DNA of 61,724 nucleotides, taken from NCBI GenBank assembly GCA_014729395.1, contig WJJZ01000004.1, positions 1-61,724 of the forward strand, in the 5' to 3' direction. Origin of the DNA: Candidatus Magasanikiibacteriota bacterium (lineage in GTDB: Bacteria; Patescibacteriota; Patescibacteriia; Magasanikbacterales; UBA922). Positions 3,978 through 51,467 of this stretch are shown piece by piece. The position numbers and the translations under genes were made by a program. Below the pieces are notes generated by a model. That model searched no databases. It was not told the DNA's origin and worked only from the letters and a program-made list of their open reading frames with translations. Every line of letters starts with the position of its first letter. The first letter of the stretch is position 1.

Positions 3978-3995
3978 AAAGTCTCTAAAAAAAAG

Positions 3996-4027
3996 AGGTT
4001 CAGCACAGGCTGAACCTTATTTTTTTA
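3996..4027. terminator. bidirectional intrinsic terminator between convergent genes
   Basis: AGGTTCAG (3996-4003) / CTGAACCT (4011-4018), with an A-run upstream and a T-run downstream. Confidence 0.7.
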
Positions 4028-4571: not shown

Positions 4572-4758
4572 TAGTCACCTCCTTTTTATTTAATGAACAT
4601 GATATATTGACATATAAATGGAAAAATGTCAAAGTAATTGCGGTAAAAATTATCCACATAGATTGATTTTAAAAAGAGGCGGAAATCTGTTAGTATGACC
4701 AAGACTATGAATAATAATTTTTCAAAAGAAAACCATTTATAATCCGGTGATATTTTAG

Positions 4759-4784
4759 CCACTCCAATCGAGTGGTCTTTTTTT
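4759..4784 (+). terminator. intrinsic terminator-like hairpin 50 nt upstream of the PRTase-like CDS
   Basis: CCACTC (4759-4764), loop CAATC, GAGTGG (4770-4775), then TCTTTTTTT. Confidence 0.55.
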
Positions 4785-4834
4785 GAAAGTTCTTTATTCA
4801 ATTATTTACCACCAATAGGTATGGGAGGTGTAGC

Positions 4835-5740: not shown

Positions 5741-5748
5741 AGCGATAT

Positions 5749-5797
5749 ACCTGTTTGGAGACGTTGCAAAGCACCAAACTCCAAGCAGGTTTTTTTA
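5749..5797 (+). terminator. intrinsic terminator after the PRTase-like gene
   Basis: 12-bp stem ACCTGTTTGGAG / CTCCAAGCAGGT (one G-U pair), then TTTTTTT. Confidence 0.75.
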
Positions 5798-5819
5798 AAT
5801 CATCGATATAAAAAAAGTA

Positions 5820-5848
5820 TTGACGATATAAATAATTTACTATACAAT
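5820..5848 (+). promoter_or_regulatory. sigma-70-like promoter for secDF
   Basis: TTGACG, 17-nt spacer, TACAAT. The ATG at 5865 follows after a very short leader. Confidence 0.5.
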
Positions 5849-5864
5849 AATCCCCAGTTTAAAT

Positions 5865-7919
5865 ATGAATAAAGTTAAAAAAGCAAACAGCGCAAGGTCA
5901 AAGGTCAGGTGGGGTATAATTGGCATACTCGCGCTTTTTATTATAGCCGGTTTTTTTGATGTGCCAACCTGGGCAAACAAAGCGATTGATACGGTTAATA
6001 ATACCGCATATTTAGGTATACCCAGAATTCCCGAAAAGGGTTTTAATCTTGGGTTGGATTTACAGGGCGGCGCTCATCTTATTTACCAGGCGGATGTCAG
6101 TGGAATAAAAGAAAGTGAAAAAGGTGCTGCAGTAGAAGGGGTTAGAGATGTGATTGAAAGAAGAGTGAACGCAATCGGTGTCTCTGAACCTAATGTACAA
6201 ACCACCAAAGTGGGAAACGATTATCGAGTTATTGTGGAATTACCCGGGGTAACCGATATAAACGAAGCTATTAACATGATTGGCGAGACTCCAATTTTGG
6301 AATTTAAAGAAGAAAATGATGAGCCGCAAAGAGAGCTAACTGAAGGAGAGAAGCAGCAATTGAGTGATAATAATTTACAAGCAGCTCAAAAAGCTACTGA
6401 GGCTTTGGATAAGATTAAAGAAGGGGCTGAATTTGGTGAGATTGCAAAAGAGTATTCAGAAGATGAATTAAGTAAAAATAATGGCGGTTATTTGGGTTAT
6501 ATTGACAGATCTTCGCCTTATCCCGCGCTTTATTCATGGGCCGAAAATGCTCAAGAGGGGGATTTGGGAGAATTGGTTCAGTCAAGCGAGGGTTTAAACA
6601 TACTTAAAAGAGGAGCTGAACGAGACGGTCAGGTGGAAGTGGAAGCCAGTCATATTTTAATTTGTTATCAAGGAACACAATTTTGTCCTGATAACGAATT
6701 GACTAAAGACGAAGCGTTTTTAAAAGCTCAGTCACTTTTCCATGAAGCAAATGCGGAAAATTTTAGCGATTTGGCAAAAGAAAATTCCACAGATCCCGGG
6801 ACAAAAGATGTTGGTGGTGATCTGGGTTGGATAAGTAAAGGTCTACTTGTTACCGAAGTTGATGAGCCGCTTTTTTCATCTGAAGTTGGTCAAATAATCG
6901 GTCCGGTTGAATCTCCTTTCGGTTATCATATTTTATATAAAAAGAATCAAAGAGTAGGTAAAGAATATGAAATTTGGCGAATACTGGTAAAGACCATGAC
7001 AGCGGCAGACATTTTACCTCCTGATGATCCTTGGAAAAATACAGGATTATCCGGTAAGCAGCTTGAAAAAGCGGAAGTGGTTTCAGATCCACAAACCGGA
7101 GCTATACAGGTTTCTCTGTTGTTTGACGAAGAAGGAAAAGATTTATTTAAAGAACTTACAGAAAGAAATATCAGCAAACCGATAGCAATATTTCTAGATG
7201 GAGCACCGATTAGTATTCCAACCGTAAATAGTGTAATCCCGGATGGTAGAGCTGTAATTCAGGGTAATTTTAATCTAAGTGAGGCACAATTGTTGGCACA
7301 GAGATTAAATGCCGGTGCTCTGCCGGTTCCGGTTGAGCTGATTGCTCAGCAGAGTATTGGTGCCAGCTTGGGTGCCGAATCATTACAAAAAAGTTTGAAA
7401 GCCGGTATTGTCGGTTTGATCTTAGTAATGCTTTTCATGCTGATTTATTATAGATTGCCCGGTTTGGTGTCTGTTTTTTCTCTTACTTTGTATATCACTT
7501 TGACACTGGCCATTTTCAAATTGATCGGCGTTACTTTGACATTGGCCGGAATCGCAGGATTTATTTTGTCAATCGGTATGGCGGTTGATGCAAATGTTCT
7601 GATTTTTGAGAGATTAAAAGAAGAGCTTAAAGAAGGTAAAAGTCTAAAGGCCGCGGTTGAAGAAGGATTTTTACGAGCATGGACGTCTATCAGGGATGGG
7701 AATATTTCCACGCTGATTACTTGTGTACTGTTAATTTGGTTTGGTTCCAGTTTTGTGCAAGGTTTTGCCGTAACTTTGGCAATTGGTATTTTAATCAGTA
7801 TGTTTTCGGCTATTACAGTGACGCGTGTCATCTTGAGATTTGTGGTACCTTGGTTCAAACCGGAAGGCGGTTTCATGTTTTTGGGCAGTAAAAGAGTTGA
7901 GAACAAAAAGACTGAGTAA
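5865..7919 (+). CDS. secD: protein translocase subunit SecD with inserted PpiC/parvulin-type PPIase region
   Basis: SecD signatures: 'GLDLQGGAHLIYQ', 'ETPILEF', 'IAIFLDGAPISIPTV' and C-terminal TM helices containing 'GMAVDANVLIFERLKEE'. Residues ~153-385 carry parvulin motifs: 'GGYLGYI', 'ASHILI', 'GGDLGWI', 'PFGYHILY'. Confidence 0.9.
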   Translation: MNKVKKANSARSKVRWGIIGILALFIIAGFFDVPTWANKAIDTVNNTAYLGIPRIPEKGFNLGLDLQGGAHLIYQADVSGIKESEKGAAVEGVRDVIERRVNAIGVSEPNVQTTKVGNDYRVIVELPGVTDINEAINMIGETPILEFKEENDEPQRELTEGEKQQLSDNNLQAAQKATEALDKIKEGAEFGEIAKEYSEDELSKNNGGYLGYIDRSSPYPALYSWAENAQEGDLGELVQSSEGLNILKRGAERDGQVEVEASHILICYQGTQFCPDNELTKDEAFLKAQSLFHEANAENFSDLAKENSTDPGTKDVGGDLGWISKGLLVTEVDEPLFSSEVGQIIGPVESPFGYHILYKKNQRVGKEYEIWRILVKTMTAADILPPDDPWKNTGLSGKQLEKAEVVSDPQTGAIQVSLLFDEEGKDLFKELTERNISKPIAIFLDGAPISIPTVNSVIPDGRAVIQGNFNLSEAQLLAQRLNAGALPVPVELIAQQSIGASLGAESLQKSLKAGIVGLILVMLFMLIYYRLPGLVSVFSLTLYITLTLAIFKLIGVTLTLAGIAGFILSIGMAVDANVLIFERLKEELKEGKSLKAAVEEGFLRAWTSIRDGNISTLITCVLLIWFGSSFVQGFAVTLAIGILISMFSAITVTRVILRFVVPWFKPEGGFMFLGSKRVENKKTE

Positions 7920-7931
7920 ATATTTATAGTT

Positions 7932-8846
7932 ATGATCAACATAATCCAAAAAAGAAAAATTACATTTGCGCTTTCAAGTATTTTGTTTGTAGCCAGTATT
8001 GTTATTTTAATTGTTTTTGGTCTGAAGCCCGGAATAGATTTTACCGGAGGCTCATTGATGGAAGTTTCTTTTTCAGAGACAAGACCGGGTTTAAACGAAA
8101 TACAGGAGAGTTTATCTACGGTTGGATTCGATCTCGGATCAGTATCAACGCAACCGATTGATGATGATTCTTTTTTAATCAAAACACGGTTTATCTCGGA
8201 AGATGAACATCAATTGGTATTGGAGAAAATAAGAGCTGATTTTGAAAATGAAAATAATCGTGTTTTGGAAGAAAGAGTGGAGACAATCGGACCCGCTATC
8301 AGTTCGCAACTGCGAACCAGGGCTATCTATGCGGCAATTGCCGTAGTTTTGGCAATTGTTTTTTATGTAGCTTATGCTTTTCGACGTGTTTCAAAACCGG
8401 TTCAATCGTGGAAATATGGAATCACCGCAATTATTGCTTTGGTACATGATGTGACAATCACAATGGCCGTATTTGCTTTATTGGGTAGATTTTACGGTGT
8501 TGAGGTTGATATTCCTTTTGTGGTTGCATTGCTTACAATTTTAGGTTATTCGGTAAACGACACTATTGTTGTGTTTGACAGGGTTAGAGAAAATTTGATC
8601 AAAAGAGGCAGTTCGCAGTTTGCAGACACGGTTAATCTTGGTGTAAATCAAACTTTAACTAGATCATTCAATACTTCTTTGACTACCTTGGTGGTCTTGT
8701 CTGCTTTGTTTGTCTTTGGCGGCGCCACTATTCATTATTTTTCATTGGCTCTGATTATCGGAATTTTATTGGGAACATATTCATCAATATTTTTGGCAAG
8801 TCCATTGCTTGTGGTTTGGCAGGAGTATAAATACAGAAAAGTTTAG
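7932..8846 (+). CDS. secF: protein translocase subunit SecF
   Basis: 'GIDFTGGSLMEV' and 'LGYSVNDTIVVFDRVREN' are typical SecF motifs. It immediately follows secD. Confidence 0.93.
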   Translation: MINIIQKRKITFALSSILFVASIVILIVFGLKPGIDFTGGSLMEVSFSETRPGLNEIQESLSTVGFDLGSVSTQPIDDDSFLIKTRFISEDEHQLVLEKIRADFENENNRVLEERVETIGPAISSQLRTRAIYAAIAVVLAIVFYVAYAFRRVSKPVQSWKYGITAIIALVHDVTITMAVFALLGRFYGVEVDIPFVVALLTILGYSVNDTIVVFDRVRENLIKRGSSQFADTVNLGVNQTLTRSFNTSLTTLVVLSALFVFGGATIHYFSLALIIGILLGTYSSIFLASPLLVVWQEYKYRKV

Positions 8847-10625: not shown

Positions 10626-11768
10626 TTAGTTTATTAACCCCCTCATTTTTTCAAGAGCTAAATCTCTCAAGTCGTTTCTAGACTCGGAATACTTATATAG
10701 AATTCTCCATTCATCAAGGCTATGAGCAAGTATAGACATTTGTTCAAGAATAAAATTTTTAAAAATGGGGTCAGGTTCAGACCTATTTAAATAATTCGAA
10801 TATTCTTCAAAACTAATATTTGCCATTTTTACTTTATTCATAATTGCATTTTTAATATCCAACCTAAACTTCGCTTTTTCGTAAACAATACACAGTTCAG
10901 TAAAATTACCCGCCAATTCAGCCATTTTATTTAATGCTTTGTCTTGTATTATTTTACTATGTTCATTATTCGGACAAGATTCGTGCCATTTATTAAAATT
11001 TCGTTCAAATTCAGTCAATTTCTCCAGAACATTTATTTGCAAGTCTATAGATTCCTTATTCGAGGATTTCAAATCCCAAGTACTGTAGCATTTGATTAGT
11101 TCACTCATTTTTCTATGAATTATGTCTTTTAGTTCATTTTTTTTATTGGAATAAATGAATACATAAAACCATTGAAGAAAATTTACAGCAAATTTATACA
11201 TTTTTGTAATAGCAATTTCCCTATATTTACTACCCGGCAGAGAATGTTTGTAAATATAATGCCAGTCTTCAAAAGTATTAGCCAGTTTAACAAGTTTTTG
11301 AATTGCAATTTTGTCTAAATCATTCCAATCATCAAAACAAGCACAAAATTCCTTCCATTGTTCTGAGGTGAATTCAAAATCAATTATACGCTTCAAGGCC
11401 AAACGCAGTGACTTGCTGTCATATGAACAATTTAAAAAAAAATAACACCATTCATCAAAATTACCGGCCAATTCAGCCATTTTATCGAGAGCAATAAGTT
11501 TTATTCTACTCGACAAAGGAGCTGATTTGTAAACTTCCTCCCAATCACCAAATGTCTCACATTTTTGCTTTATTATTTTTAATATGAAATTTTCAATGTC
11601 GCTTTCCGGATTCGCATTGCAGTGTATTTTGACCAATTTTTCTATACTCAAAGATTCAAAAAATTCTTTATCCTCTGAAAGAGCGGGCCAAAGTAATACT
11701 ACGGTCAAACCAAATTTAAATTTTTTTTCCAATTCAGTAAAGGTTTTGTTTTGTTCGCTCGGTTTCAT
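10626..11768 (-). CDS. alpha-helical tandem-repeat protein (~31-residue period, ~10 repeats)
   Basis: Repeat pattern 'A..KM.ELA.NF.EW..........'; for example 'ALDKMAELAGNFDEW', 'AIQKLVKLANTFEDW', 'ALNKMAELAGNFTEL', 'ILEQMSILAHSLDEW'. A strong SD (GGAGG) lies 8 nt before the ATG. Confidence 0.7.
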   Translation of the reverse strand: MKPSEQNKTFTELEKKFKFGLTVVLLWPALSEDKEFFESLSIEKLVKIHCNANPESDIENFILKIIKQKCETFGDWEEVYKSAPLSSRIKLIALDKMAELAGNFDEWCYFFLNCSYDSKSLRLALKRIIDFEFTSEQWKEFCACFDDWNDLDKIAIQKLVKLANTFEDWHYIYKHSLPGSKYREIAITKMYKFAVNFLQWFYVFIYSNKKNELKDIIHRKMSELIKCYSTWDLKSSNKESIDLQINVLEKLTEFERNFNKWHESCPNNEHSKIIQDKALNKMAELAGNFTELCIVYEKAKFRLDIKNAIMNKVKMANISFEEYSNYLNRSEPDPIFKNFILEQMSILAHSLDEWRILYKYSESRNDLRDLALEKMRGLIN

Positions 11769-40209: not shown

Positions 40210-40428
40210 GTGAAAGAAAAGAAATCTTTTGTAAAGTTTGAGGCTGAATGCGAAAAGGGGCACAAGTCCGATATCGTGTCCATACAGTCTCCATTTGAAA
40301 TTATAAAATACACTCGCTGTCCATTTTGTATGAGAGAGTTTGTAAGTGTTTTTAGAAAAAATGAAGATGGTGGATTTGGTGGGGGAGCCATCAATAAAAA
40401 ATTTGTCAAGAAAACGGTACAGAATTAG
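40210..40428 (+). CDS. small Cys/His protein (possible zinc ribbon), GTG start
   Basis: 72 aa; 'CEKGH...CPFC'. AAGGGAGG lies 5 nt before GTG 40210. The 3' end overlaps the convergent gene by 4 nt. Confidence 0.5.
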   Translation: MKEKKSFVKFEAECEKGHKSDIVSIQSPFEIIKYTRCPFCMREFVSVFRKNEDGGFGGGAINKKFVKKTVQN

Positions 40429-41930
40429 GTCTGCATATTGGTAGACCTTTTTTTTATTCTATTGAATATTCTATACAGAGTTGTCACAAGTTTTTCAAAA
40501 ATATTTGCGGGTTTGAGAGCAAGAGATAATATTAATACAATAAAAATAATTCCAAAGGTGTGAAATAGAGCCGGTGTAGTTATGTTTATTACGAGCATAG
40601 CGATAATTGCAGCCAAAGAACCGACATAAAAATCATGCCAATCACTTACAAATTTAATTTTATTTATTATTCTTGTTGTGGAAAAAATGTAGATTGCTAA
40701 TAAAATTATTGACCCAATGACACCTAGTTCGGCTAGCATTTCCAAGTAACCCCAGTCATATTGGCCGGTGGTTGTGTAATCGTTGCTGTTAGGGTTTAGA
40801 TATGTAAAGCTTGAGCCAAGTCCATTTCCCAGCATTGGGTTTTCACTAATTTGTTCCAATATACTTGGTAATATTATCATGCGAGTGGCCGAGCTCGTTT
40901 CTATTTTAGGACTGGCAAGGCTGGCCAATCTTACGCCAAATAATTCCCAGCCCAATGTTTTTCCGTTACTGGAAACTATTGAAAAACTTGTAAAAATTAA
41001 AACCACGAGACCAATGGTTGTACACGAAACAATAAACCACCTTGAAGCAATATGTTTGTATTTTAAAATTAACAATCCGACAAAAAGTGCCAGTAAAAAA
41101 GACCTTGATAAATTTAATACCAAAATAATAATAGATAAAAATAGTAAAATCCTCCACATTTTGTGATGGTGTTCATCACGCATTAAAAGGGATGAAATGA
41201 TCAATATTATTGGAGCAATCAATAAATGTTCGGGAAGGACAATCCTGAAAAAACCATTACCCATGTTTGTAATTTTGCCGTTTGCCGCATCTCTGAACCA
41301 TTTGTAAAAAGGTTCTTGCAACTCAACCATTCCGCTGGAAAACATGATAAAAGTAAAAATCGAAAAAAGCGCTGATCCGATAATAAATACAATTATCAAT
41401 CTTATGAAATATTCATAATTGTTTTTTTTGTTTAACAAGTGATAAGTTGGAAATACTAATGGCAGGTAAAGATATGGAATCAAATCTTGAATAATATGTT
41501 TATAATTATTTCCATTAATTATACCGTTTATACTGGCAAACATTAAAAATAAATAGAGAATAATTAAAATTATCGTAAAATATTTGTTAATTAAAAAACG
41601 CTTTCTGAACTCACGCTTCCAAATTATATGATTTGTCCACAAAAATAAAAAAATACTAATTAAAAGTGTCCTTATGGAGAGGCCTGCAAATTCCAAATAG
41701 TTACCCGAACCTCCTAAAAAAATTTCTCCAATTAAGATAAAAAAAGCCCAATCAGGGTTTTTAAAATATACAATCCCAAAAAACATTAGTAAGCTAAAAA
41801 CCAGAATTCCTTGTATAATCAAATGATTGTGAAAAGAAAACGAAACAAATCTTATTGTAAAAAAAACCAGTAGTAAAAATAAGGTTTGCCAGTTTAGAAA
41901 GATGGATTTAGTTGTGAGACGGTTAAGCAT
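40425..41930 (-). CDS. O-antigen ligase/polymerase (Wzy_C-like) membrane protein
   Basis: 501 aa, polytopic. 'LNLSRSFLLALFVGLLIL' is followed by a large loop, as expected for the family. Confidence 0.75.
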   Translation of the reverse strand: MLNRLTTKSIFLNWQTLFLLLVFFTIRFVSFSFHNHLIIQGILVFSLLMFFGIVYFKNPDWAFFILIGEIFLGGSGNYLEFAGLSIRTLLISIFLFLWTNHIIWKREFRKRFLINKYFTIILIILYLFLMFASINGIINGNNYKHIIQDLIPYLYLPLVFPTYHLLNKKNNYEYFIRLIIVFIIGSALFSIFTFIMFSSGMVELQEPFYKWFRDAANGKITNMGNGFFRIVLPEHLLIAPIILIISSLLMRDEHHHKMWRILLFLSIIILVLNLSRSFLLALFVGLLILKYKHIASRWFIVSCTTIGLVVLIFTSFSIVSSNGKTLGWELFGVRLASLASPKIETSSATRMIILPSILEQISENPMLGNGLGSSFTYLNPNSNDYTTTGQYDWGYLEMLAELGVIGSIILLAIYIFSTTRIINKIKFVSDWHDFYVGSLAAIIAMLVINITTPALFHTFGIIFIVLILSLALKPANIFEKLVTTLYRIFNRIKKRSTNMQT

Positions 41931-41944
41931 GAATTTTAAATTTA

Positions 41945-42020
41945 AAATTTTGAATTTCGAATCAATTTTAAATTTATTAATTAAAAAATTAACAATTCAA
42001 TCAAAATTTAAAATTCGAAA
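41945..42020. repeat. AT-rich inverted-repeat element, copy 1 (shares both arms with 58043-58177)
   Basis: AAATTTTGAATTT (41945-41957) and AATTCAATCAAAATT (41994-42008) recur identically at 58056-58068 and 58142-58156. Confidence 0.7.
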
Positions 42021-42023
42021 TTA

Positions 42024-42950
42024 TTAATTTAAAATGTTGCTGGCAATTTTTTGATAACCACGCAAAAATCCTTCGACATCCATAGCTTTTTTACCTTCAA
42101 GTTGAAGTTTTAGCACCTCAATTGCGTTTTTCGCACATCCTATATACATTTTACCATTTTCTAGCACCACCTTGCCAGCTTCTATTTGTAGATCAACCGG
42201 TTTGATTTTTATCAACTTCAATCGCTTATTCTTCCAGCTTGTCCAAATACCGGGCCAAGGATTTAGACCACGGTATCGGTTATAAATATCAGTAGCCGAT
42301 TTTGTCCAGTCAATTTTGCCATCATCTCTGGTAAACTGGCCGCAAGTGGAGGCTTGTAAATTATCTTGTGGAATGGGCTCTAATTCACCGCTTATATACT
42401 TTGGGATAGCCTCCAGCAAAGCTATTTTGCCGATCTCAGCCAGTTTTTTGTCTAAATCAATATAAGTGTCATGTTCACCTATTTTGATTGGTTTTTGTAG
42501 GATTATCGGTCCGGTATCAAGCCCCTCATCCATTTTCATAATAGTAACTCCGGTTTCAGTTTCGCCATTTATCAAAGCTGATTGGATAGGGGAGGCGCCA
42601 CGGTATTTTGGTAGTAGTGAAGTGTGGACGTTTAAAAATCCGTGAGGTGAATCATCTAATAGTTTTTTCGGAATAATTATTCCATATTGAGCTACTATAG
42701 CGATGTGGTAGTCAGATATTGGTAGCTGGTAAATTCTTAATGATGCGGGTTGAATTATTGGGAGATCGTATTTTTCAGCCAAAATTTTTACAGGAGATTT
42801 TTTTAGTTCTTTTTTGCGTCCTACGGGTTTGTCCGGCTGGGTGATTACCAGCTCAACTGTAATAAAAGGACTGCTGATAAGTCCTTCGAGTATAGTGGCA
42901 GCGAATTCATGCGTGCCGAAGAAAATAGCCCTAATTTTTCTATCATTCAT
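42024..42950 (-). CDS. fmt: methionyl-tRNA formyltransferase
   Basis: 'IFFGT.EFA...L..L', 'HGFLNVHTSLLPKYRGASPIQ.A...G...TGVTIM.M...LDTG'. I trimmed the start to ATG 42950 because the track ORF extends through the heptamer array. Confidence 0.93.
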   Translation of the reverse strand: MNDRKIRAIFFGTHEFAATILEGLISSPFITVELVITQPDKPVGRKKELKKSPVKILAEKYDLPIIQPASLRIYQLPISDYHIAIVAQYGIIIPKKLLDDSPHGFLNVHTSLLPKYRGASPIQSALINGETETGVTIMKMDEGLDTGPIILQKPIKIGEHDTYIDLDKKLAEIGKIALLEAIPKYISGELEPIPQDNLQASTCGQFTRDDGKIDWTKSATDIYNRYRGLNPWPGIWTSWKNKRLKLIKIKPVDLQIEAGKVVLENGKMYIGCAKNAIEVLKLQLEGKKAMDVEGFLRGYQKIASNILN

Positions 42951-42952
42951 AA

Positions 42953-43026
42953 AGTAGATGATAAGTGATAAGTGATAAGTGATAGCTTTTCTTAGTAAAA
43001 CTATCACTTATCATCTATCATTTATT
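42953..43026. repeat. inverted heptamer array (GATAAGT x4 vs ACTTATC/ATCTATC) between def and fmt
   Basis: GATAAGT GATAAGT GATAAGT GATAGCT (42960-42987), 18-nt loop, then ACTTATC ATCTATC ATTTATT (43006-43026). Confidence 0.85.
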
Positions 43027-43082
43027 ATTTAAAATATCTCCAAAATCAATTTTTTTATCTCGTCTCCTGGGTCAGACACTTA

Positions 43083-43562
43083 TCACTCAATCTCATATAC
43101 ATCTCTCGCTTTATCAATAAACAACACACCATCAAGATGGTCAACTTCATGTTGAATAACTCTGGCAAAAAGTTTTTCAGCTTCAAACTCAATTTTCTCT
43201 CCTTTTTCGTTAGTCGCAGTTACTTGTATTTTGTTATAACGCTTTACTTTTCCAAATGTTTTGGGAATAGATAGACAGCCTTCCAAATCTACAATTTTTT
43301 TTCTGCTTAATTTATTCCATCTTGGATTGATTAAAACAAGATCTTTTTTATCGGGATTTGCATCTTTTCCAATTATTACTATTCTAATATTTTTCCCTAT
43401 CTGAGGAGCAGCTAAACCAACACCATCATCATTATGCATTGTTTCTATCATGTTTTTGATCAAATTTTGAGTATCCTCTTTCAATATAAAATTACGATCC
43501 ACTTCATCAGATCGTTTTCTTAAAATTTCGTTTGGATGAGTTATCACTACTAGTTTAGTCAT
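43083..43562 (-). CDS. def: peptide deformylase
   Basis: 'GVGLAAPQIG', 'EGCLSIP', 'QHEVDHLDG'. Confidence 0.96.
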   Translation of the reverse strand: MTKLVVITHPNEILRKRSDEVDRNFILKEDTQNLIKNMIETMHNDDGVGLAAPQIGKNIRIVIIGKDANPDKKDLVLINPRWNKLSRKKIVDLEGCLSIPKTFGKVKRYNKIQVTATNEKGEKIEFEAEKLFARVIQHEVDHLDGVLFIDKARDVYEIE

Positions 43563-43618
43563 GATTATGTATTTTTATATTATAATTTTTGCCATATCAC
43601 CGTTTTTTTACGATTAAA

Positions 43619-45493
43619 TTATGGTGATAATATGGAAATTGGGTTTGGATCAATTTTCCACCCGGTCGGTATTATTTTATTAATCTTTGCAATTGAGTTT
43701 GGCCAATTTTTTGCGTCAAGTTTTATTAAAAATACATGCCAGTATTTATTTCGATAAAACTTTGGGTGCATTTCAATTGGACCGCTAATCTTAGCATTTT
43801 TTTGTGTTTTTGTCAATTCTCCGCTTATTATATCATACACTTGTTCAGACTCCTGTTTGGAGAGTTGAAAATTAGTGTTGCCATAAAAATATCGGACCAT
43901 ATAGCTATATGGAGGGTAATTTAAGCCTTTTCTTAAATTTAAATCGGTTCTGTAAAATCTATCCGGTTGCTCAAGTGATTTGAATATCAAATGACTTGGA
44001 TTGTGAGTTTGAATGATGAAATTGGATTTTTTATTTTTTTTGTAGTTTATCTTGGCAATTAGATGCCAAATTTTTTCATTTGATAGGTATTCCGGTATAT
44101 TTAGTATTCTATCAATATCCAGAATTACAAACAGAGTTGTTTTTTCCCAATCAATGTAACGCAGGGCTGAAGTGGTCCCTATTATGATCTTCCTCTTTTT
44201 TGTATATAATTTTTTTTCTGAAATTGTACTATCAATGCGTAATATTTTATAATTTTTTTTATTTTTCATTATTTTTTTTATTCTCTTCTCCACATATTGA
44301 ATTGCTTTGCCTTTTAACTTGCCAAGATTTATTTTGCATTGAGGACATTTTATTGGAAGAGTTTTATTTTTTTTACAATATTTACATATAATTTGATTTT
44401 CTTTTTCAATATATATCATTGGCAAGCTGCAATCGGGACATTTTGCCGTATAAGCGCATTTTTCACAATTTAAAGAAGTGGCAAATCCCAATCTGTTAGT
44501 CATCAAAAAAATATCATTTTTGCTATTTTCAATTAGTTCTTCGGTTCTGTATGAGAGTAAATCAAAATTACCCGTTTGTCTTTCTTTGGCTATGTCAAAA
44601 ATACTTGCCTTAATCGGTTCAATTGATAATTTTTTATCTGTTAAAAGATTATAATTGTCTTTATGAATATGGTAGTAGCTTGTACATGATGGCGAAAAAC
44701 TCATGTATTTAATTTTTGTACTAAATTTGTATGCGTAGAGCCGGGCTATGTCTTTGTCATAAAATCTCGGAGTTTGATCCCAGTGTTTGTGATTTTCGTC
44801 ATGTTCATAATCAATTATTATTGACTCCAAATCAAAAAAAGCCAAGAAAATCGCACTGCGTGTTCCGATAATAATATTTTTTTCTCCATTTCTAACCTGT
44901 ATCCACCTATCATATTTCTGTTTATCACCAAGTTCGCTATGCCAAACGACTGTTTGTTTTTGTTTTTCAATCGGTAATAGTCTTCTAATATCATCAATAA
45001 GGTGAATTTCAGGTACAAGTATGAGGGTTTGGCCTTTTATGCAAGACAATAAACATTTTTTATGCTCTTTTTCGTTCTTATAATAACAATAAGAAGATTT
45101 TGATTTTTTTTCTGCAATCTTTGAATTCGAATCATCATTCTGATGTGACTTTAATTCTATCTTTTTCAGTTTATTTTTCTTAAGAGGTAATAAGCTTTTT
45201 TTTAATATGTCTCCCAACGAGGTTTTATATATTAAGCTTAATGATTTATAAAAATTAAGTTGGTTTTTTGTTAAAAAAGGTTCTGAACTTACAATGGATT
45301 TTATTTGCTTGGTTTTTCCGTATTTTTGTTTTATATCTACAGCCAAAACAAGTCCGAAGATTTCGGACTTGCGAAAAGGAATTATCACCATCTGGCCAAC
45401 ATGAATTTTTTTTGTTAATTCTTTTGGTACAGAGTAATCAAATTCACTTACCTTAGCCGGTAGGCGTTTTATTGGAGCGACTTTGATAATCAT
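43619..45493 (-). CDS. priA: PriA-like primosomal protein N' with degenerate helicase motifs
   Basis: N-terminal 'FDYSVP..L......G..V.IPF', 'LILVPEI', 'IIIGTRSAIF', a four-CxxC zinc region 'CEKCAYTAKCPDCS...CKYCKK...CPQCK', and 'IIQTHNPSH'. The Walker A 'G.TGSGKT' and motif VI 'GRAGR' are absent. Confidence 0.8.
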   Translation of the reverse strand: MIIKVAPIKRLPAKVSEFDYSVPKELTKKIHVGQMVIIPFRKSEIFGLVLAVDIKQKYGKTKQIKSIVSSEPFLTKNQLNFYKSLSLIYKTSLGDILKKSLLPLKKNKLKKIELKSHQNDDSNSKIAEKKSKSSYCYYKNEKEHKKCLLSCIKGQTLILVPEIHLIDDIRRLLPIEKQKQTVVWHSELGDKQKYDRWIQVRNGEKNIIIGTRSAIFLAFFDLESIIIDYEHDENHKHWDQTPRFYDKDIARLYAYKFSTKIKYMSFSPSCTSYYHIHKDNYNLLTDKKLSIEPIKASIFDIAKERQTGNFDLLSYRTEELIENSKNDIFLMTNRLGFATSLNCEKCAYTAKCPDCSLPMIYIEKENQIICKYCKKNKTLPIKCPQCKINLGKLKGKAIQYVEKRIKKIMKNKKNYKILRIDSTISEKKLYTKKRKIIIGTTSALRYIDWEKTTLFVILDIDRILNIPEYLSNEKIWHLIAKINYKKNKKSNFIIQTHNPSHLIFKSLEQPDRFYRTDLNLRKGLNYPPYSYMVRYFYGNTNFQLSKQESEQVYDIISGELTKTQKNAKISGPIEMHPKFYRNKYWHVFLIKLDAKNWPNSIAKINKIIPTGWKIDPNPISILSP

Positions 45494-46278
45494 AATTCAA
45501 AGTTACCAACCAAATATCCAACTCCAAATGGTCCTTCGTACGAATAGTTTTTAAAACTATAATTAGTGTTTTTCAGTAGACCCAGTAAGGTCACAATTGA
45601 AAGGTAACCGCACTGAGCAGCGTTTTCGACAAAGCCAGGATCCATGTTTGTTATACCGACTGTGTTTTTGGTTTCCAGTAATTCTATAATTTTTTTGTCA
45701 AAATCAGCGCCCACTTGGCTAAAACCTGCCGGAGCATCAGTAGTCAGACCGTGCGATAGATCACCTGACGCGATTACCGCAATTCTGTTATTTGATTTGG
45801 TTATTACTTTTTTAAGTATTTCACCAAATTGAAGATGCTTTTTTGTATTCATTGCACAAAAACCAAGCGGCAGTATTTTTGTATTTTCGATATGTTTTGT
45901 CAGATAAAATAGAGGAACTCCGCTGCCATGATCTAAATTTTCACGACATATCAGTTTAATATTTAAATTGTTCTTATTGGCTTCATCTTCTATCAATTGC
46001 GCGGTCTCCGGAGATCCGGTTAATTCTCTGTTTGTATCAAAATCTCCAAATTCTGAAAAATTTAATTTAAAATTTGGACAGCTGTACGCTGAAAAGTAAT
46101 CGTCAAATTTACTGGCATGTGGAGATATTATCAAAATTAAATCCGGCTTGGCAACGTATAAATCTTTTTCCAATTGTTCCAAAGCCTCTTTTGTTTTTTT
46201 TACCTTTTCTATTTGCTCTTTTCCTATATTGGGTATAAGAAGAGGAGGGTGGGGGGTAATGGCAGCAAAAACTAGCAT
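45490..46278 (-). CDS. class III extradiol dioxygenase subunit B-like / Memo-family protein
   Basis: 'AAITPHPPLLIP', 'ISPH', 'LDHGSGVPL', 'ASGDLSH'. It overlaps the priA start by 4 nt. Confidence 0.7.
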   Translation of the reverse strand: MLVFAAITPHPPLLIPNIGKEQIEKVKKTKEALEQLEKDLYVAKPDLILIISPHASKFDDYFSAYSCPNFKLNFSEFGDFDTNRELTGSPETAQLIEDEANKNNLNIKLICRENLDHGSGVPLFYLTKHIENTKILPLGFCAMNTKKHLQFGEILKKVITKSNNRIAVIASGDLSHGLTTDAPAGFSQVGADFDKKIIELLETKNTVGITNMDPGFVENAAQCGYLSIVTLLGLLKNTNYSFKNYSYEGPFGVGYLVGNFEL

Positions 46279-46318
46279 AAAATGAATATTGAATATAGAT
46301 GAATTCCCTGTTTATAAC

Positions 46319-48589
46319 TTAAAATTGCTCGACAACCAATTCCGCCAGACGATTCGGTTCTGCAAATCTATCGTCTTTTGGCATACCCATGTTTATTATT
46401 ACAAATTTTTTACCATCTTCAGGTCTTTCAATCAGCATTATCAAACCAGCTCCGGATTCATATAGATATCCGGTTTTACTGGCTATAATATTATATTTTA
46501 ACCCTTCTTCATTTACCAGGTCATTACTGTGATAGTCATAGTGATGCGGTTTGTCGTCCAAATCCAGAACTTCATCGTATTCATACCCCTTCATAGCCAG
46601 GATATTTTTCAAAGTAACATTATCTATCGCTCTTGTAAATAATGCAAAATATTCACGAGCGGTTGATTTGTTTTCAGTATAAATCCCGGAGGTATCGGCA
46701 AATTTTGTATTATCAAGACCCCATTCCTTTGCTTGTTCGTTCATTCTTCGAACAAAATCACTTTCATTCGGTTCAACTGAATCTACAAGCATGCGAGATG
46801 GAGTGTTTAGGGATGAAATCAACATTGCATACATCAAGTGAATATTTTTTATTTTCTCTCCCACGGTTACTCGGAATGTATGGTAGCTTGCATTATGCTC
46901 CTCAGGGTTATAAGTTGTTACACCGGCGCTTGTTCTCAGGCCTTCTTTTAGTAATCTGTATGCAGTCATGACTTTGGTAAATGAGGCGATAGGTCTTACA
47001 ACATCAACATTTTTTCCCATTAAAATTTCTCCCGAATCATAATCCGCTACCAAATATACGTCGCTTGCGGTATCAAACTTTTCTCCAATATATTGAGTAT
47101 CTTCTTCCGGAGTTTTTTGCATTAGTAAATCCGGATCAAAACTTTGTTTTTCGTCTATAATTGAGCTTTGTCCGGCTACGGTTTGAGTTTGGTCAATATT
47201 ATCATTTAAATCAGACCGAAGGTAGACAGATTGGCCGTTTTCATGTGCCATTCCGGCAAATTGGTTTACCCAGACAATATTCTCCCATTTATAGCCGAGA
47301 CCATTATATACATCTTCGGAAGCGATATGTCTTTTGCGACCGTTTTCAACCACATATATTCTATTTGAACCTTCTATACCAAACAAAGTACCATCTTTTA
47401 ATAAAAGCGGGTCTCCGTGTTCAAATTCATTCATTTCCTCTGCAGGGATAGAGCTAATTTCCATGTTGGGAAAATTATTTTTCGCTACCGCTTTATCGAT
47501 TACCGAATGATATTTACCATCTTTTAGAAAAAACATTTCACCTGTCTCATCTAGTTTTACCAGTTTTCCAAGAGGATTTGCTAGGTCAGCGGTAATGGTT
47601 TTTCCCAATTCGAATGGGGCGATGTCGCTTTTATTAACTTCAATGAATTCTTCCGGATGATATCCTAATTTTTTTATAACATCGTAGTTGGCAAAAGGTC
47701 TTAATGTTAGATTATCCAGTAAGTAATATGTAGAGCCGTTTTTCAGTATTGAATAATTGGGGAAGTCAATTTTATCTCCTGTTTCATAACGCCTGATCTC
47801 ATCTTCGCTTACCTCTACGATCAATTTGGGGTCAAATCTGGTTACAAGTGCTGTCATACTCCCAATAGGTCGTTTTTTTGACTCTTCCAATAAATAGACA
47901 ATGGGACTATCTTCGGATTTTATCAAAGATCCGTCCGGGTATATCTGGTCGAACCATTTTTGCCATAATATCCAGAAATTTTGATTTCCATGAATATGAG
48001 GTGTGTAAGTATAGAGAAATGCGGTTGCCAGATTTGTCGGTGATACAAGTTCACCATCGATCAGATAGCTTTGTCCCGATCTCATAATCCATGGTTCGTT
48101 TTTGTAATTATCATAATACCAACGCATAATCCCGGCGGCGTAATCTACTTGGTTCCCAAAACCTTTAAATTTTTGTATAGAAGGGTCGTTCATGCTGCAA
48201 CTGTCGCAGACGCCATATCCGGTTGCCCAATTAAGGGCTTTCTGGGTGGGGTTTTCATTGGTAATAAGACTTTGTTCTTTTTGCAGTTTTACTAAAATGT
48301 ATTTGGGGTTTATTTGGTACTCTCTTGCCGCTTGGTAAATAATGTCGGATGCTAAACGTTGAGTTCCTTCCCAGTCATCGGTTCTATAATTTGATAAATA
48401 ACTTCGGTGATCCAACAAAAAAGCTTGAATATCAGCTCGATCCATTGTACCCCAATCCTGCATTTCTTCATCACTAATAATGAAGTTGGGATTGAATTCC
48501 GTACTGGAATCGGCAAAGACCGAGGCACCGGGGATTGTCATGCCAACAATGACTAAAAAAACTATTAGTTTTGTAGCTAAATTTTTCAT
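46319..48589 (-). CDS. secreted S11-type D-alanyl-D-alanine carboxypeptidase with ~480-aa N-terminal extension
   Basis: Signal peptide, then C-terminal SxxK 'ASFTKVM', SxN 'SSLN' and KTG 'SKTGY'. Confidence 0.8.
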   Translation of the reverse strand: MKNLATKLIVFLVIVGMTIPGASVFADSSTEFNPNFIISDEEMQDWGTMDRADIQAFLLDHRSYLSNYRTDDWEGTQRLASDIIYQAAREYQINPKYILVKLQKEQSLITNENPTQKALNWATGYGVCDSCSMNDPSIQKFKGFGNQVDYAAGIMRWYYDNYKNEPWIMRSGQSYLIDGELVSPTNLATAFLYTYTPHIHGNQNFWILWQKWFDQIYPDGSLIKSEDSPIVYLLEESKKRPIGSMTALVTRFDPKLIVEVSEDEIRRYETGDKIDFPNYSILKNGSTYYLLDNLTLRPFANYDVIKKLGYHPEEFIEVNKSDIAPFELGKTITADLANPLGKLVKLDETGEMFFLKDGKYHSVIDKAVAKNNFPNMEISSIPAEEMNEFEHGDPLLLKDGTLFGIEGSNRIYVVENGRKRHIASEDVYNGLGYKWENIVWVNQFAGMAHENGQSVYLRSDLNDNIDQTQTVAGQSSIIDEKQSFDPDLLMQKTPEEDTQYIGEKFDTASDVYLVADYDSGEILMGKNVDVVRPIASFTKVMTAYRLLKEGLRTSAGVTTYNPEEHNASYHTFRVTVGEKIKNIHLMYAMLISSLNTPSRMLVDSVEPNESDFVRRMNEQAKEWGLDNTKFADTSGIYTENKSTAREYFALFTRAIDNVTLKNILAMKGYEYDEVLDLDDKPHHYDYHSNDLVNEEGLKYNIIASKTGYLYESGAGLIMLIERPEDGKKFVIINMGMPKDDRFAEPNRLAELVVEQF

Positions 48590-48665: not shown

Positions 48666-48694
48666 TTGACATAAAAGCTTTTTTCTTGTATTTT
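48666..48694 (+). promoter_or_regulatory. promoter candidate for the DUF488 cassette
   Basis: TTGACA, 17-nt spacer, TATTTT. Confidence 0.4.
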
Positions 48695-48731
48695 GCATAG
48701 GATTTCGATCTTTACATTTTAGGAGGTAAAT

Positions 48732-49385
48732 ATGGACGAAAAACAACTTGATTTGTTGAGTATCAAACAGGTACAGATGATTCCAAAACTCGAGAAACCG
48801 CCGCATCTTAGGGCTATTTGCAGTATCAGTTGCAGTATGCCCGCCAGACTTTTTTTTGGTATTCTTAAAAAAAATCAGGTTACCATGATTATGGATACCC
48901 GACGGACTCGAGATTATAGAGGGAGGGGTTTTTTTACCAGTGAAGATGATTTTCGTTATCTTTGCAAATGTCATGATCTTGTTTACAAGGTGGTACGGGA
49001 GTTGTCTCCCACAAGAGAGATGAGGGCGACTTTTGCTGATGAATTTAAATTTGTCAAAAAGGCAAAAGATCGAGACCCGATGGCCTGGACTAATTTTTTA
49101 CGTAGTTATGAAGATATTTTACGTAGTGAAAGACCGTTACGACAGGGTAGGGTACATGATCTTCTTTATGGTGAGCATAGAGTAATTGCGATTATCTGTG
49201 CTTGTCAGCACCATGAAGATTGTCATCGTATGTTGGCAACAACTATGATGGCAAGGTATTTACCGGGAGTGGAGTTAAAAATTCTCTATCCTGAAGATAA
49301 AGAGCCCAGGAGGTCTTACCCACGACGATATCGTCTGGAGGATTTTCCACATTTCGGTATCCAGGCCGATCCGCCAAGGAGATAG
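48732..49385 (+). CDS. DUF488-family protein
   Basis: By eye, 'ICSISCS..ARLFFGILKKNQVTMIMDTRR' and 'RVIAIICACQHHEDCHRMLATTMM' fit the DUF488 pattern (I.TIGHS...F...L....I..L.DVR ... ..L.C.E.....CHR..IA). AGGAGG lies 5 nt before the ATG. Confidence 0.65.
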   Translation: MDEKQLDLLSIKQVQMIPKLEKPPHLRAICSISCSMPARLFFGILKKNQVTMIMDTRRTRDYRGRGFFTSEDDFRYLCKCHDLVYKVVRELSPTREMRATFADEFKFVKKAKDRDPMAWTNFLRSYEDILRSERPLRQGRVHDLLYGEHRVIAIICACQHHEDCHRMLATTMMARYLPGVELKILYPEDKEPRRSYPRRYRLEDFPHFGIQADPPRR

Positions 49386-49388
49386 AGA

Positions 49389-50105
49389 ATGAAAGGTATA
49401 ATTCTTTCACATACGAGAATGGGTGCAACCAACTCCGGTTTTTGCACCAACATTCTAGTTGAAGATGGTAATGGAAATCCTATTCAAATAAGGCCCAGAT
49501 CTCTTCCGAACAATAATCTGTTTATTTGCTCATTTGGAATGAATGAAAATCAGATGATGAAGAAGTGGCGGCCTGGCTGTTGGGTGAGACTTCCCAAATT
49601 CAAGTACGTTGTTGGGGAATATCGAAGACCAACACATCCTGAAGATGTAATTTTGGATCACTATGAGGGAGTGGAGGTTGATTTTGAAAAAATAGTGAAG
49701 AAATCATCCTACATTGAATTAATAGAACCTTTTTGCTATAGGGGGATTGATGAACTGTTTCCTGATGTCAGGATTAAGCGGGGTTCTTTTAATAAATGGT
49801 ATGTACCGGGGGGTCTAAATTTAAATCATTCGGTTGGCTATATCTACTCTAAAGAGGTAAAAATATATGTAGATTTTGATAAGTTTCGAGCTAGAATAAC
49901 CGATGAGAATGGCAATATTATCAATGGGCCTCTCAAAGATGAACATTTGCTAAGAAAACTGAAAAAAAAGAAAGAAAAAATCCAACAGAAATCATTGATA
50001 TATAAAAACAAATTGTTAAGGCTGTCTCTCGCAAACCCTTGGAACGAGGGAAATAGAATGGGTGAGTCTCGTTGTTTTGTGATGGTGAGTCATATTGTTA
50101 AGTGA
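49389..50105 (+). CDS. hypothetical protein, translationally coupled to the DUF488 gene
   Basis: 238 aa. AAGGAG sits inside the upstream gene's last codons, 3 nt separate its stop from this start, and the ORF ends in TGA. I have only a weak recollection of a similar 'dual-OB' family ('..IRP...', 'LRLSLANPW....CFVMVSHI'). Confidence 0.6.
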   Translation: MKGIILSHTRMGATNSGFCTNILVEDGNGNPIQIRPRSLPNNNLFICSFGMNENQMMKKWRPGCWVRLPKFKYVVGEYRRPTHPEDVILDHYEGVEVDFEKIVKKSSYIELIEPFCYRGIDELFPDVRIKRGSFNKWYVPGGLNLNHSVGYIYSKEVKIYVDFDKFRARITDENGNIINGPLKDEHLLRKLKKKKEKIQQKSLIYKNKLLRLSLANPWNEGNRMGESRCFVMVSHIVK

Positions 50106-50126
50106 ATAATAGGAGAAGAAATTATA

Positions 50127-50155
50127 AAGAGTCTGAAATAAGGCTCTTTTTTTGC
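50127..50155 (+). terminator. terminator after the cassette
   Basis: AAGAGTC / GGCTCTT stem (one G-U pair), then TTTTTTT. Confidence 0.6.
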
Positions 50156-50189
50156 CTTTTTAATAATACTTTGCTAAAGTTAAGGCAAT

Positions 50190-50894
50190 ATGAAAAAAGG
50201 AAAATTATATATTGTTGCTACGCCAATCGGAAATTTGGACGACATCACAATTCGTGCCATAGACACAATGAAAAGTGTTGATTTTGTAGCTTGCGAAGAT
50301 ACCAGAGTAACCAGAAAAATTTTGAATCATTACAAAATAGAAACACCAACGATTAGTTACCATCAACATAGCGGTGAGTCAAAGATGTTGGAAATTAGAG
50401 ATTTGTTGCTTTCCGGCAAAAATATCGCATTAGTAACGGATGCCGGTACTCCCGGAATTAGTGATCCGGGGAATAAGTTAATCGAGTTCATAGTTCATAG
50501 TTCACAGTTCTCAGACATTGTTCCTGTTCCGGGAGCTTCGGCAGTTACGGCAGCTTTGTCAGTATCAGGATTTCCTACAGACAAGTTTGTATTTATGGGG
50601 TTCCCGCCACATAAAAAAAGAAGAAAACAATTTTTTCAAGAAATTGCAGACAATAAATACACAACGGTTTTTTACGAATCATCGCATAGAATAAAAAAAG
50701 CTCTGCAAAATTTGGCAGAGGTGTTGGTTGAGGAAAGACAGTCCGCCTCCGCTAAAGCTTCGGCGAGACAAGTGTGTGTATGTCGTGAACTTACAAAAAA
50801 ATTTGAGAGCATTTACAGGGGTTCTGTGTCCGAGGTTGTAGGTATGGATATTACAGAAAAAGGGGAGTTCGTAGTTATAGTACGTAGTCAATAA
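50190..50894 (+). CDS. rsmI: 16S rRNA (cytidine1402-2'-O)-methyltransferase
   Basis: 'LYIVATPIGNL.DIT.RA......VD.VACEDTR.T..IL', 'DAGTPGISDPG', 'PGASA'. Confidence 0.9.
   Translation: MKKGKLYIVATPIGNLDDITIRAIDTMKSVDFVACEDTRVTRKILNHYKIETPTISYHQHSGESKMLEIRDLLLSGKNIALVTDAGTPGISDPGNKLIEFIVHSSQFSDIVPVPGASAVTAALSVSGFPTDKFVFMGFPPHKKRRKQFFQEIADNKYTTVFYESSHRIKKALQNLAEVLVEERQSASAKASARQVCVCRELTKKFESIYRGSVSEVVGMDITEKGEFVVIVRSQ
50487..50514. repeat. TTCACAG-family heptamer array (4 units) inside rsmI
   Basis: TTCATAG TTCATAG TTCACAG TTCTCAG, translated in frame as 'FIVHSSQFS'. Confidence 0.85.
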
Positions 50895-51122: not shown

Positions 51123-51467
51123 ATGAAAAAAGAAATTTGGTTTCAAGGACCCAAAAAAGGACCTGAGATTGTTTTCACAGACAATAATATATTGAAAGTT
51201 GATACTCATGATGAGAGAGGGGTTATTGAGCTGGATATTAATGATATTATAGGTGATTATATAAAATATTTAAAAAATGTGAGAAAAATTTACGATGAAG
51301 ACAAAGAATCAACCTATAGAATAAGTGAATCGGTTTTTCAGGAATTATTTGATGAAATGATTAGCCATGTCCGACAGGCAAATAACTTGCATGACATGGA
51401 TTTACCAAAAGAATTCTTAGATAAATTAAAAAGTGATTTTAAATTATTATTTGAAATTGAGAATTAA
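51123..51467 (+). CDS. hypothetical protein (114 aa)
   Basis: ORF ending 3 nt before metG. I recognise no family. Confidence 0.55.
   Translation: MKKEIWFQGPKKGPEIVFTDNNILKVDTHDERGVIELDINDIIGDYIKYLKNVRKIYDEDKESTYRISESVFQELFDEMISHVRQANNLHDMDLPKEFLDKLKSDFKLLFEIEN

Follow-up and report, generated by a model that had tools for sequence, protein, structure and literature searches.

What is the function of a pair of small, closely spaced genes that lies among housekeeping genes in the chromosome of a bacterium of the Candidate Phyla Radiation (CPR; Patescibacteria)? The pair is in contig WJJZ01000004.1 of Candidatus Magasanikiibacteriota bacterium (assembly GCA_014729395.1), and we use "the window" for the whole stretch of 61,724 nucleotides (nt) that was analyzed. 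A first reading of this DNA, made from its letters without database searches (the sequence-only reading), had singled out positions 48666-50155, between a cell-wall carboxypeptidase gene and rsmI, as a self-contained two-gene cassette. We found the two open reading frames (ORFs) and both flanks, a Peptidase_S11 gene and rsmI, as it had described them. The cassette is a two-gene CPR variant, so far seen in CPR only, of a system that has already been catalogued by Pfam and PADLOC. We propose, with a probability of roughly 0.45, that it is the minimal two-gene CPR form of the DUF488-N3/DuOB system, that it processes the ends of single-stranded nucleic acids, and that it has an accessory role in repair or maintenance. 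The two genes, both identified as ORFs, are:

48732-49385, + strand: gene 1, a DUF488-N3a protein of 217 amino acids
49389-50105, + strand: gene 2, a divergent DuOB protein of 238 amino acids

The product of gene 1 is, judging by its sequence, a DUF488-N3a protein that retains the D-x-R and C...CHR motifs of that family. It scored 40.7 bits against both PF04343 (DUF488; gathering cut-off of 22.2; E = 4.3e-10) and PF22751 (DUF488-N3a; cut-off of 27; E = 3.3e-10), the latter described in Pfam as the 'Active DUF488-N3 subclade', in agreement with the assignment to DUF488 in the sequence-only reading. It also matched the PADLOC model PDC-M45C (6.2e-9), and the weaker hit of PDC-M45B (0.0011) was to this same gene. 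The DUF488 core spans approximately residues 28-185, with a disordered N-terminus before it and a basic C-terminal tail carrying the motif PRRYRLxDFP after it. The Cys/His segment that had been read as C...H.DCHR is present, although its actual sequence, CACQHHEDCHR (residues 156-166), is one residue off that pattern. When the protein was aligned with canonical N3a proteins and the paralogues that accompany them, D55, R57, C156, C164, H165, and R166 were invariant.

Structural comparisons suggest that gene 1 has a weak affinity to the Cys-phosphatase/rhodanese fold. The AlphaFold2 model, made from four sequences only, has an alpha/beta core and disordered termini and a predicted local distance difference test score (pLDDT) of 67.7. 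Its top fold matches in the PDB were the dual-specificity phosphatases VHR and laforin and a DUF442 phosphatase, all of them non-significant (E >= 0.025), and the best match to a PDB sequence was the rhodanese domain of USP8, also non-significant (E = 0.15). Burroughs and Aravind reportedly placed DUF488 in the Cys-phosphatase/rhodanese superfamily in 2023 and are said to have predicted that it processes DNA ends.

Gene 2 encodes a divergent member of the DuOB family with two OB folds. The sequence-only reading could name no family for it, which was wrong, and had been reminded of proteins annotated as dual-OB, which was right. The direct match to PF22557 ('Dual OB-containing domain') was marginal (29 bits with a cut-off of 27, E of 1.4e-6, residues 81-236), and most members of the clade to which gene 2 belongs are so divergent that a precomputed Pfam match is absent. 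An hhalign comparison of a 33-sequence profile of the clade with 26 canonical DuOB proteins gave a probability of 99.9 % and an E of 5.8e-32 over 218 columns, and a profile search started from the clade reached proteins that score well against DuOB. The AlphaFold2 model of gene 2 shows two OB folds, with a pLDDT of 92 and a predicted template modeling score of 0.89. The profile and structure searches that had been recommended for both proteins yielded Pfam families for each and a confident two-OB model of gene 2, whereas the model of gene 1 is of moderate quality.

The product of gene 2 probably binds single-stranded nucleic acid, as indicated by the structures that its model resembles. The best Foldseek matches (PDB and BFVD) were tandem-OB proteins that bind single-stranded DNA (ssDNA), namely POT1, Teb1 AB, and LEF-3, and also RPA and Rim1, with probabilities of 0.95-1.0 but low template modeling scores (TM-scores; 0.25-0.33). 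The resemblance to SSB, RPA, and POT1 is in fold only: gene 2 had no match among PDB sequences even at E <= 10 and no SSB-type match in Pfam. Searches of the PDB sequences with single-clade and mixed profiles gave nothing significant for the family of gene 1 or that of gene 2. Likewise, neither cassette protein had a match in NCBIfam, and their only matches in PHROGs were non-significant (E of 0.03 and 0.12). The sequence-only reading had suspected a role directed at nucleic acids, and the tandem-OB fold fits that suspicion, as do the HRDC fusions described below.

Across the clade and the canonical DuOB family, T9, C19, R35, H83, E85, D86, S148, R211, and C229 show little or no variation. The polar residues among them suggest the pattern of an enzyme or a metal site, beyond what is needed for binding ssDNA alone. 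If they do form an active site (C19, R35, H83, E85, D86, S148, R211, and C229), DuOB could be a new OB-based catalytic or metal-dependent domain that, together with DUF488-N3a, constitutes an undescribed two-enzyme pathway for cleaning or modifying blocked ssDNA or RNA ends, domesticated by CPR from a conflict system. We think this unlikely.

The two genes were found together in nearly every related locus. Ten other distinct loci have a DUF488(-N3a) gene, and in all ten it is directly 5' of a DuOB-like gene on the same strand (L001, L002, L003, L004 (Magasanikiibacteriota), L005/L006 (Uhrbacteria), L008, L010, L014, L015, and one JGI contig). The paired genes of these loci either share 1-4 nt or are separated by no more than 17 nt, and P0071 is a fusion of the two in one protein of 415 amino acids, in which residues 5-133 are DUF488 and residues 194-414 are DuOB-like. 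A profile scan of the ORFs in the window found no DUF488 or DuOB gene other than those of the cassette. In the window, the TAG stop codon of gene 1 and the ATG of gene 2 are separated by 3 nt, and an internal Shine-Dalgarno (SD) sequence lies in the last codons of gene 1, just as the sequence-only reading had noted in proposing translational coupling:

49376-49381, + strand: internal SD AAGGAG in the last codons of gene 1, for coupled translation of gene 2 (from the sequence)

The sequence-only reading had also asked whether the pair co-occurs in other genomes and had taken it for a functional module; the same-strand adjacency and the fusion both bear this out. Based on these comparisons, gene 1 and gene 2 appear to be co-transcribed and translationally coupled and to work as one module.

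A self-contained pair of translationally coupled genes is also the architecture of a toxin-antitoxin-like addiction module, and HicAB modules are near some relatives. However, neither protein matches a toxin or antitoxin family in Pfam, NCBIfam, PADLOC, or PHROGs, both are longer than 200 amino acids and have enzyme-like invariant residues, the pair is stably inherited at one site, and the two proteins occur naturally as the fusion P0071. We rejected this explanation, which is hardly credible, on the lack of homology and on the fusion.

The sole exception to the linkage is a solo DuOB-like gene (L012 6001-6681) in two near-identical contigs (L012 and L013) that have no DUF488 gene within 12.7 kb. 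This solo DuOB has lost the otherwise invariant C19. In L012 (3969-7661), and also in L013, it is divergent from a gene for LexA (5269-5895) followed by one for a Y-family polymerase (3969-5267), and a PD-(D/E)XK/Cas4-like nuclease gene (6792-7661) is downstream of it. The intergenic region that the divergent genes share in L012 contains a perfect Cheo-box-like palindrome, GTGAACGATTGTTCAC (GTGAAC-N4-GTTCAC).

The cysteines of the two proteins (loop residue 158 of DUF488 and residue 229 of DuOB) vary together in part. In nine loci a CxC loop in DUF488 goes with C229 in DuOB, and in two (L010 and L015) a CxE loop goes with Thr or Ala at position 229. A strict co-variation was considered and rejected, as the canonical loci combine a CSE loop with Cys229. 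The partial co-variation, the invariant cysteines in both proteins, the weak sequence match to a rhodanese domain, and the loss of C19 from the solo DuOB that has no DUF488 partner would all fit a sulfur or thiol relay, in which the DUF488 loop, rich in Cys (CxCx5CH), behaves as a rhodanese does and hands persulfide or redox equivalents over to C19 and C229 of DuOB, which then thiolates or reduces bound nucleic acid. Besides the canonical combination of CSE and C229, the non-significance of the rhodanese match argues against such a relay, as does the absence of a cysteine desulfurase, PP-loop ATPase, or other sulfur-mobilizing gene from every neighborhood. We consider it improbable.

In the mechanism that we favor, end processing in repair or maintenance, the DUF488-N3a and DuOB proteins would form a complex. 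DuOB would grip a segment or an end of single-stranded DNA (or RNA), in the manner of tandem OB proteins of the POT1 or RPA type, and would present the strand end to DUF488-N3a, which is predicted to be a cysteine enzyme of the rhodanese/Cys-phosphatase type that needs no metal. The enzyme would strip the end of a phosphate or sugar-phosphate (for example, a 3'-phosphate, 3'-phosphoglycolate, or cyclic phosphate), or transfer that group, by way of a covalent intermediate on Cys156 that is stabilized by Arg166. The polar set of DuOB, the eight residues listed above, would add a metal site or a second catalytic step, making DuOB more than a passive binder. In the CPR lineage, the module would serve the repair or maintenance of nucleic-acid ends.

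Some fusions and neighbors of the family are of the DNA-damage type. DuOB is fused to a Glyoxalase/bleomycin-resistance domain in P0107, which belongs to an 11-member Chloroflexota cluster, and to HRDC in P0122; P0169 has a C-terminal extension similar to that of P0122. A Ble-like gene adjoins the pair in L003, a gene for a Vsr+GIY-YIG nuclease is directly 5' of it in L006, and a GIY-YIG gene is directly 5' of it in L010. The surroundings of the solo DuOB in L012, with LexA and a Y-family polymerase on one side and a PD-(D/E)XK nuclease on the other, are of this type as well. Because the cases are few and CPR genomes probably have many small GIY-YIG genes, we treat the repair-type neighbors as leads only. 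One further member of the family, P0109, is a tandem double DuOB.

Several points weigh against end processing in repair. The substrate and the chemistry are wholly inferred. Full-text literature searches found no experimental characterization of DUF488 and no functional study of DuOB or PDC-M45, and neither DUF488-N3 nor DuOB has a solved structure that is detectable by sequence. The model of gene 1 is only moderately confident, at the pLDDT given above, and its fold matches are non-significant. OB folds also bind RNA, oligosaccharides, and proteins, and the TM-scores of gene 2 are low. Furthermore, the association with the few repair-flavored neighbors may be due to chance in genomes that are rich in small GIY-YIG and translation genes. 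Finally, the canonical relatives are in defence-like or phage settings, which points to conflict rather than repair.

We considered whether the substrate might be a small molecule. DUF488-N3a might act on a small-molecule or nucleotide-derived substrate (ADP-ribose, NAD derivatives, or sugar phosphates), as proposed for DUF4326 and RapZ-C, with DuOB as a regulatory or scaffold partner. For the related DUF4326 domain, the Aravind group has proposed a role in processing the terminal phosphates on the ribose in ADP-ribose derivatives (PMC9503650). A gene for a CYTH-domain protein, from a family that acts on triphosphates, is directly 3' of the pair in L006, a NUDIX gene is about 5 kb 5' of it in L014, and the isoelectric points of DuOB proteins range from 5.2 to 9.8 across the family, which is not uniformly like that of nucleic-acid binders. 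On the other hand, the best matches of the tandem OB fold are ssDNA binders, the HRDC fusions point to nucleic acids, and no Macro, NADAR, ART, or SLOG partner was present in any locus examined. Weighing these observations, we regard a small-molecule substrate as distinctly unlikely.

DuOB is a sporadic family, and the window's clade within it appears to be confined to CPR. When 1.84 billion cluster representatives were scanned in full with HMMER, 261 DuOB proteins were found with E <= 1e-3; with the limit at E <= 1e-30 there were 57, which essentially correspond to the window's clade. The clade members with a source name are from Uhrbacteria and Patescibacteria, that is, all from CPR. Pattern-based scans found two loci, both CPR, in the 185,579 species genomes of GTDB and two in JGI metagenomes, and these scans rely on short patterns and underestimate the spread (alignments A4 and A8 were too diverse for them). 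We also looked at a 1.5-kb contig (L016) for context.

The canonical relatives have two DUF488 domains and are found in defence-like or phage surroundings. The window and every locus of the CPR clade had one DUF488 match only, and L017, L018, and L019 had two. L017 (5953-8608) and L018 (1-10944) contain two DUF488 genes, matching PADLOC PDC-M45B and M45C at about 1e-55 each, followed by DuOB. L018 adjoins genes for a DrmD-like SNF2 helicase (7e-147), a Metallophos + AAA_23 (SbcCD-like) pair, and a DEAD/DUF559 helicase, and L017 adjoins HicAB. L019, on an 86-kb phage-like contig (IMG/VR UViG_3300006094_000039), has a fused double-DUF488 gene (377 amino acids) and a DuOB-like gene at 6847-8777, inserted like a moron on the strand opposite to that of the surrounding phage genes (portal-like, Mu-F-like, and DUF2213). 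Both DUF488 paralogues in L017 and L018 retain C...CHR, and neither looks inactive. PADLOC has no model that covers DuOB, and PDC-M45A had no match in the window and could not be identified among the neighbors of the canonical loci.

These settings raise the possibility that the pair is an anti-phage defence or conflict system. DuOB would sense the ends of invading or damaged nucleic acids, DUF488-N3a would modify or block those ends or act on a nucleotide signal, and the CPR form would be a reduced version of PDC-M45, or of the three-gene system. The matches of gene 1 to PDC-M45C and of the canonical DUF488 partners to PDC-M45B/C, the DrmD-like helicase, SbcCD-like, and HicAB genes near canonical loci, and the insertion in the phage contig all fit this explanation. 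So do the sporadic spread, the differences in genomic neighbors between loci, and the faster evolution of DuOB (42 % identity between the window and L002) than of its DUF488 partner (62 %). However, the PDC entries of PADLOC are unvalidated candidates, and PDC-M45A and a second DUF488 gene are absent from the CPR form. There is no recognizable effector (nuclease, pore, or NADase) in or adjoining the cassette, the CPR loci are flanked by housekeeping genes (rsmI, metG, RRF, Dtd, aminoacyl-tRNA synthetases, GreA, and BipA), and the position of the cassette is kept in two genomes that are 30-47 % apart at the protein level. Taken as an explanation of the cassette as a whole, defence seems to us possible, though doubtful. 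The canonical settings favor defence and those of the window's clade favor resident repair or maintenance, and as far as the role is concerned it could equally be defence. The conflict role suggested in the sequence-only reading is plausible for the canonical relatives and fits less well with the window's clade, whose loci are among housekeeping genes and which had no relatives in our phage, viral, and plasmid searches.

The cassette appears to be a long-term resident of this lineage. In L002, the cassette is at the same site with the same strong SD, and its proteins are 62 % (gene 1) and 42 % (gene 2) identical to those in the window; the flanking PriA, LigB, Peptidase_S11, and RsmI proteins are 53-71 % identical. 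Because the site is the same and the divergence is like that of the flanks, the cassette is at least as old as the split between the genome of the window and that of L002. The sequence-only reading had taken the expression signals and the base composition as signs of an acquired module, and we rejected a recent horizontal acquisition: in addition to the position and divergence in L002, the SD is conserved in the clade, and the difference in G+C is small. A search with tblastn found no relative of gene 2 in phage and plasmid records and no match of canonical DuOB in plasmid records, and viral contigs scanned with the CPR-clade alignment (A3) contained no relative.

Other loci of the clade lie among differing, mostly housekeeping genes, and the module therefore seems to have moved or to have been sporadically lost over long times. 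The sequence-only reading had raised the question of placement in defence islands; the window and most of the clade loci are instead among housekeeping genes. We infer that the CPR cassette is a chromosomally fixed accessory function and not a mobile defence island. L002 differs from the window by an extra ORF (5305-5829) of 174 amino acids between the Peptidase_S11 gene and the cassette. The N-terminus of this ORF is hydrophobic, an SD and a terminator of its own accompany it, and it had no Pfam match.

The cassette has its own expression signals, which are kept in related loci. The remaining features of the locus are:

46319-48589, - strand: Peptidase_S11 gene, 756 amino acids, left flank of the cassette (ORF and Pfam)
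48666-48694, + strand: putative sigma-70-like promoter, TTGACA (48666-48671), 17-nt spacer, TATTTT (48689-48694), matching at 10 of 12 positions
48721-48726, + strand: SD AGGAGG, 5 nt 5' of the gene 1 ATG (from the sequence)
50126-50159, + strand: intrinsic-terminator-like hairpin with 9-bp stem and 6-nt loop (50126-50149), then T-run (from the sequence and RNA fold)
50190-50894, + strand: rsmI (TP_methylase), right flank of the cassette (ORF and Pfam)

The promoter-like site described in the sequence-only reading is present. Matches of this type are frequent in the window (30 found versus 21 expected from shuffles) and are weak evidence on their own, but a TTGAC[AT] element is at a comparable spot 5' of gene 1 in nearly all related loci. 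The ribosome-binding site is, as had been claimed, of a kind that is rare in the window: SD-like motifs precede 5 of the 57 long ORFs, and two of these five are the cassette genes. Nearly all clade loci keep a GGAGG-type SD 5' of gene 1. The terminator hairpin was also found (-13.9 kcal/mol, z = -2.1). Because the TTGAC[AT] element and the GGAGG-type SD are kept in nearly all clade loci, the self-contained nature of the cassette is supported by the comparison of loci in addition to the signals in the window. The claim of a slight enrichment in G+C held for gene 1 (41.7 %) and failed for gene 2 (36.7 %, below the flanking genes at 37.8 % and 38.9 %); the window as a whole has 35.3 %. Only gene 1 is slightly richer in G+C, and it is no outlier.

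We looked for a 5'-leader structure or operator by aligning the upstream regions, and the alignment was uninformative except for a short motif, (G/A)TTCTTTACA-like, between the predicted -10 element and the SD (48706-48718 in the window). This motif is common to L001, L002, and L004 and may be a leader or operator element.

The neighbors of the cassette in the window are genes for Peptidase_S11, LigB/Memo, PriA, RsmI, and MetRS. The cassette is at a switch in gene orientation, with a block of - strand genes (40425-48589) ending at 48589 and + strand genes starting at 48732. A local minimum of the cumulative GC skew (at approximately 47.7-48.4 kb) is beside it and probably reflects gene orientation and not a replication origin. 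An ORF of 114 amino acids between rsmI and metG (51123-51467) is kept in position in L002 with 32 % identity, far below that of its neighbors, and had no match in Pfam or PHROGs. The only other ORFs in the window with a strong SD are at 4017-4571 (-), 4835-5740 (+), and 10626-11768 (-). None of the three matched Pfam or PHROGs, and no ORF in the window is richer in G+C than that at 4835-5740 (47.8 %). The use of SD sequences in the host genome seems to be confined to non-core genes. The whole 61.7-kb window contained no tRNA gene and no Rfam family at the gathering threshold.

DUF488 is a widespread family, and the function of both DUF488 and DuOB rests on prediction. Natural versions of the system come no smaller than the CPR form, which has two genes with a single DUF488 domain and occurs once as a fusion, and this makes it a handy minimal model for the function of DUF488-N3 and DuOB. 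It also presents a case for asking if a module that is found in defence islands and phages elsewhere has become a fixed, housekeeping-like function in very small genomes. Its practical value is as a lead for biochemistry and not as a new class of system.

We compared the two proteins and their arrangement with known systems. VHR, laforin, DUF442, the USP8 rhodanese domain, RapZ-C, and DUF4326 have a Rossmann-like alpha/beta core with a Cys at a strand end, a loop, and an Arg at the start of a helix, an arrangement that gene 1 may also have. The Cys156-Arg166 loop of gene 1 differs from those of Cys-phosphatases and rhodaneses in being longer than CX5R and in having extra Cys and His residues; the matches are non-significant and an activity of gene 1 is only predicted. 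The best structural matches of DuOB, POT1 OB1-OB2, Teb1/RPA70 AB, and baculovirus LEF-3, also have two consecutive OB folds. DuOB is 8-12 % identical to these proteins, with no sequence similarity and with TM-scores of 0.25-0.33, and unlike them it has an invariant set of Cys, His, Glu, Asp, Ser, and Arg residues that would not be needed for ssDNA binding alone.

The PADLOC candidate PDC-M45, which has not been validated, consists of A, B, and C. Gene 1 matches M45C, and the DUF488 partners of the canonical loci are clearly M45B and M45C. The window differs in having no separate M45B gene; neither the window nor the examined canonical loci yielded an M45A gene, and DuOB is without a PADLOC model.

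The closest known system is the canonical one of DUF488, DUF488-N3a, and DuOB (PF04343/PF22751/PF22557; L017, L018, and L019), a three-gene system that was reportedly defined by Burroughs and Aravind in 2023. It has the same two families as the window in the same order (DUF488-N3a and then DuOB) and on the same strand, and the invariant residues of both proteins are the same as those in the window's clade. In contrast to it, a single DUF488 gene is present in the window and in the loci of its clade, with no second paralogue, either separate or fused. The DUF488 proteins of the clade are 184-229 amino acids long (146 in the canonical system), with extra helices and a disordered N-terminus, and most of them end in the basic PRRYRLxDFP tail and have CxC where the canonical loop reads CSE. 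The DuOB proteins of the clade are highly divergent, and the module is surrounded by housekeeping genes in the clade and not by genes of defence or phages.

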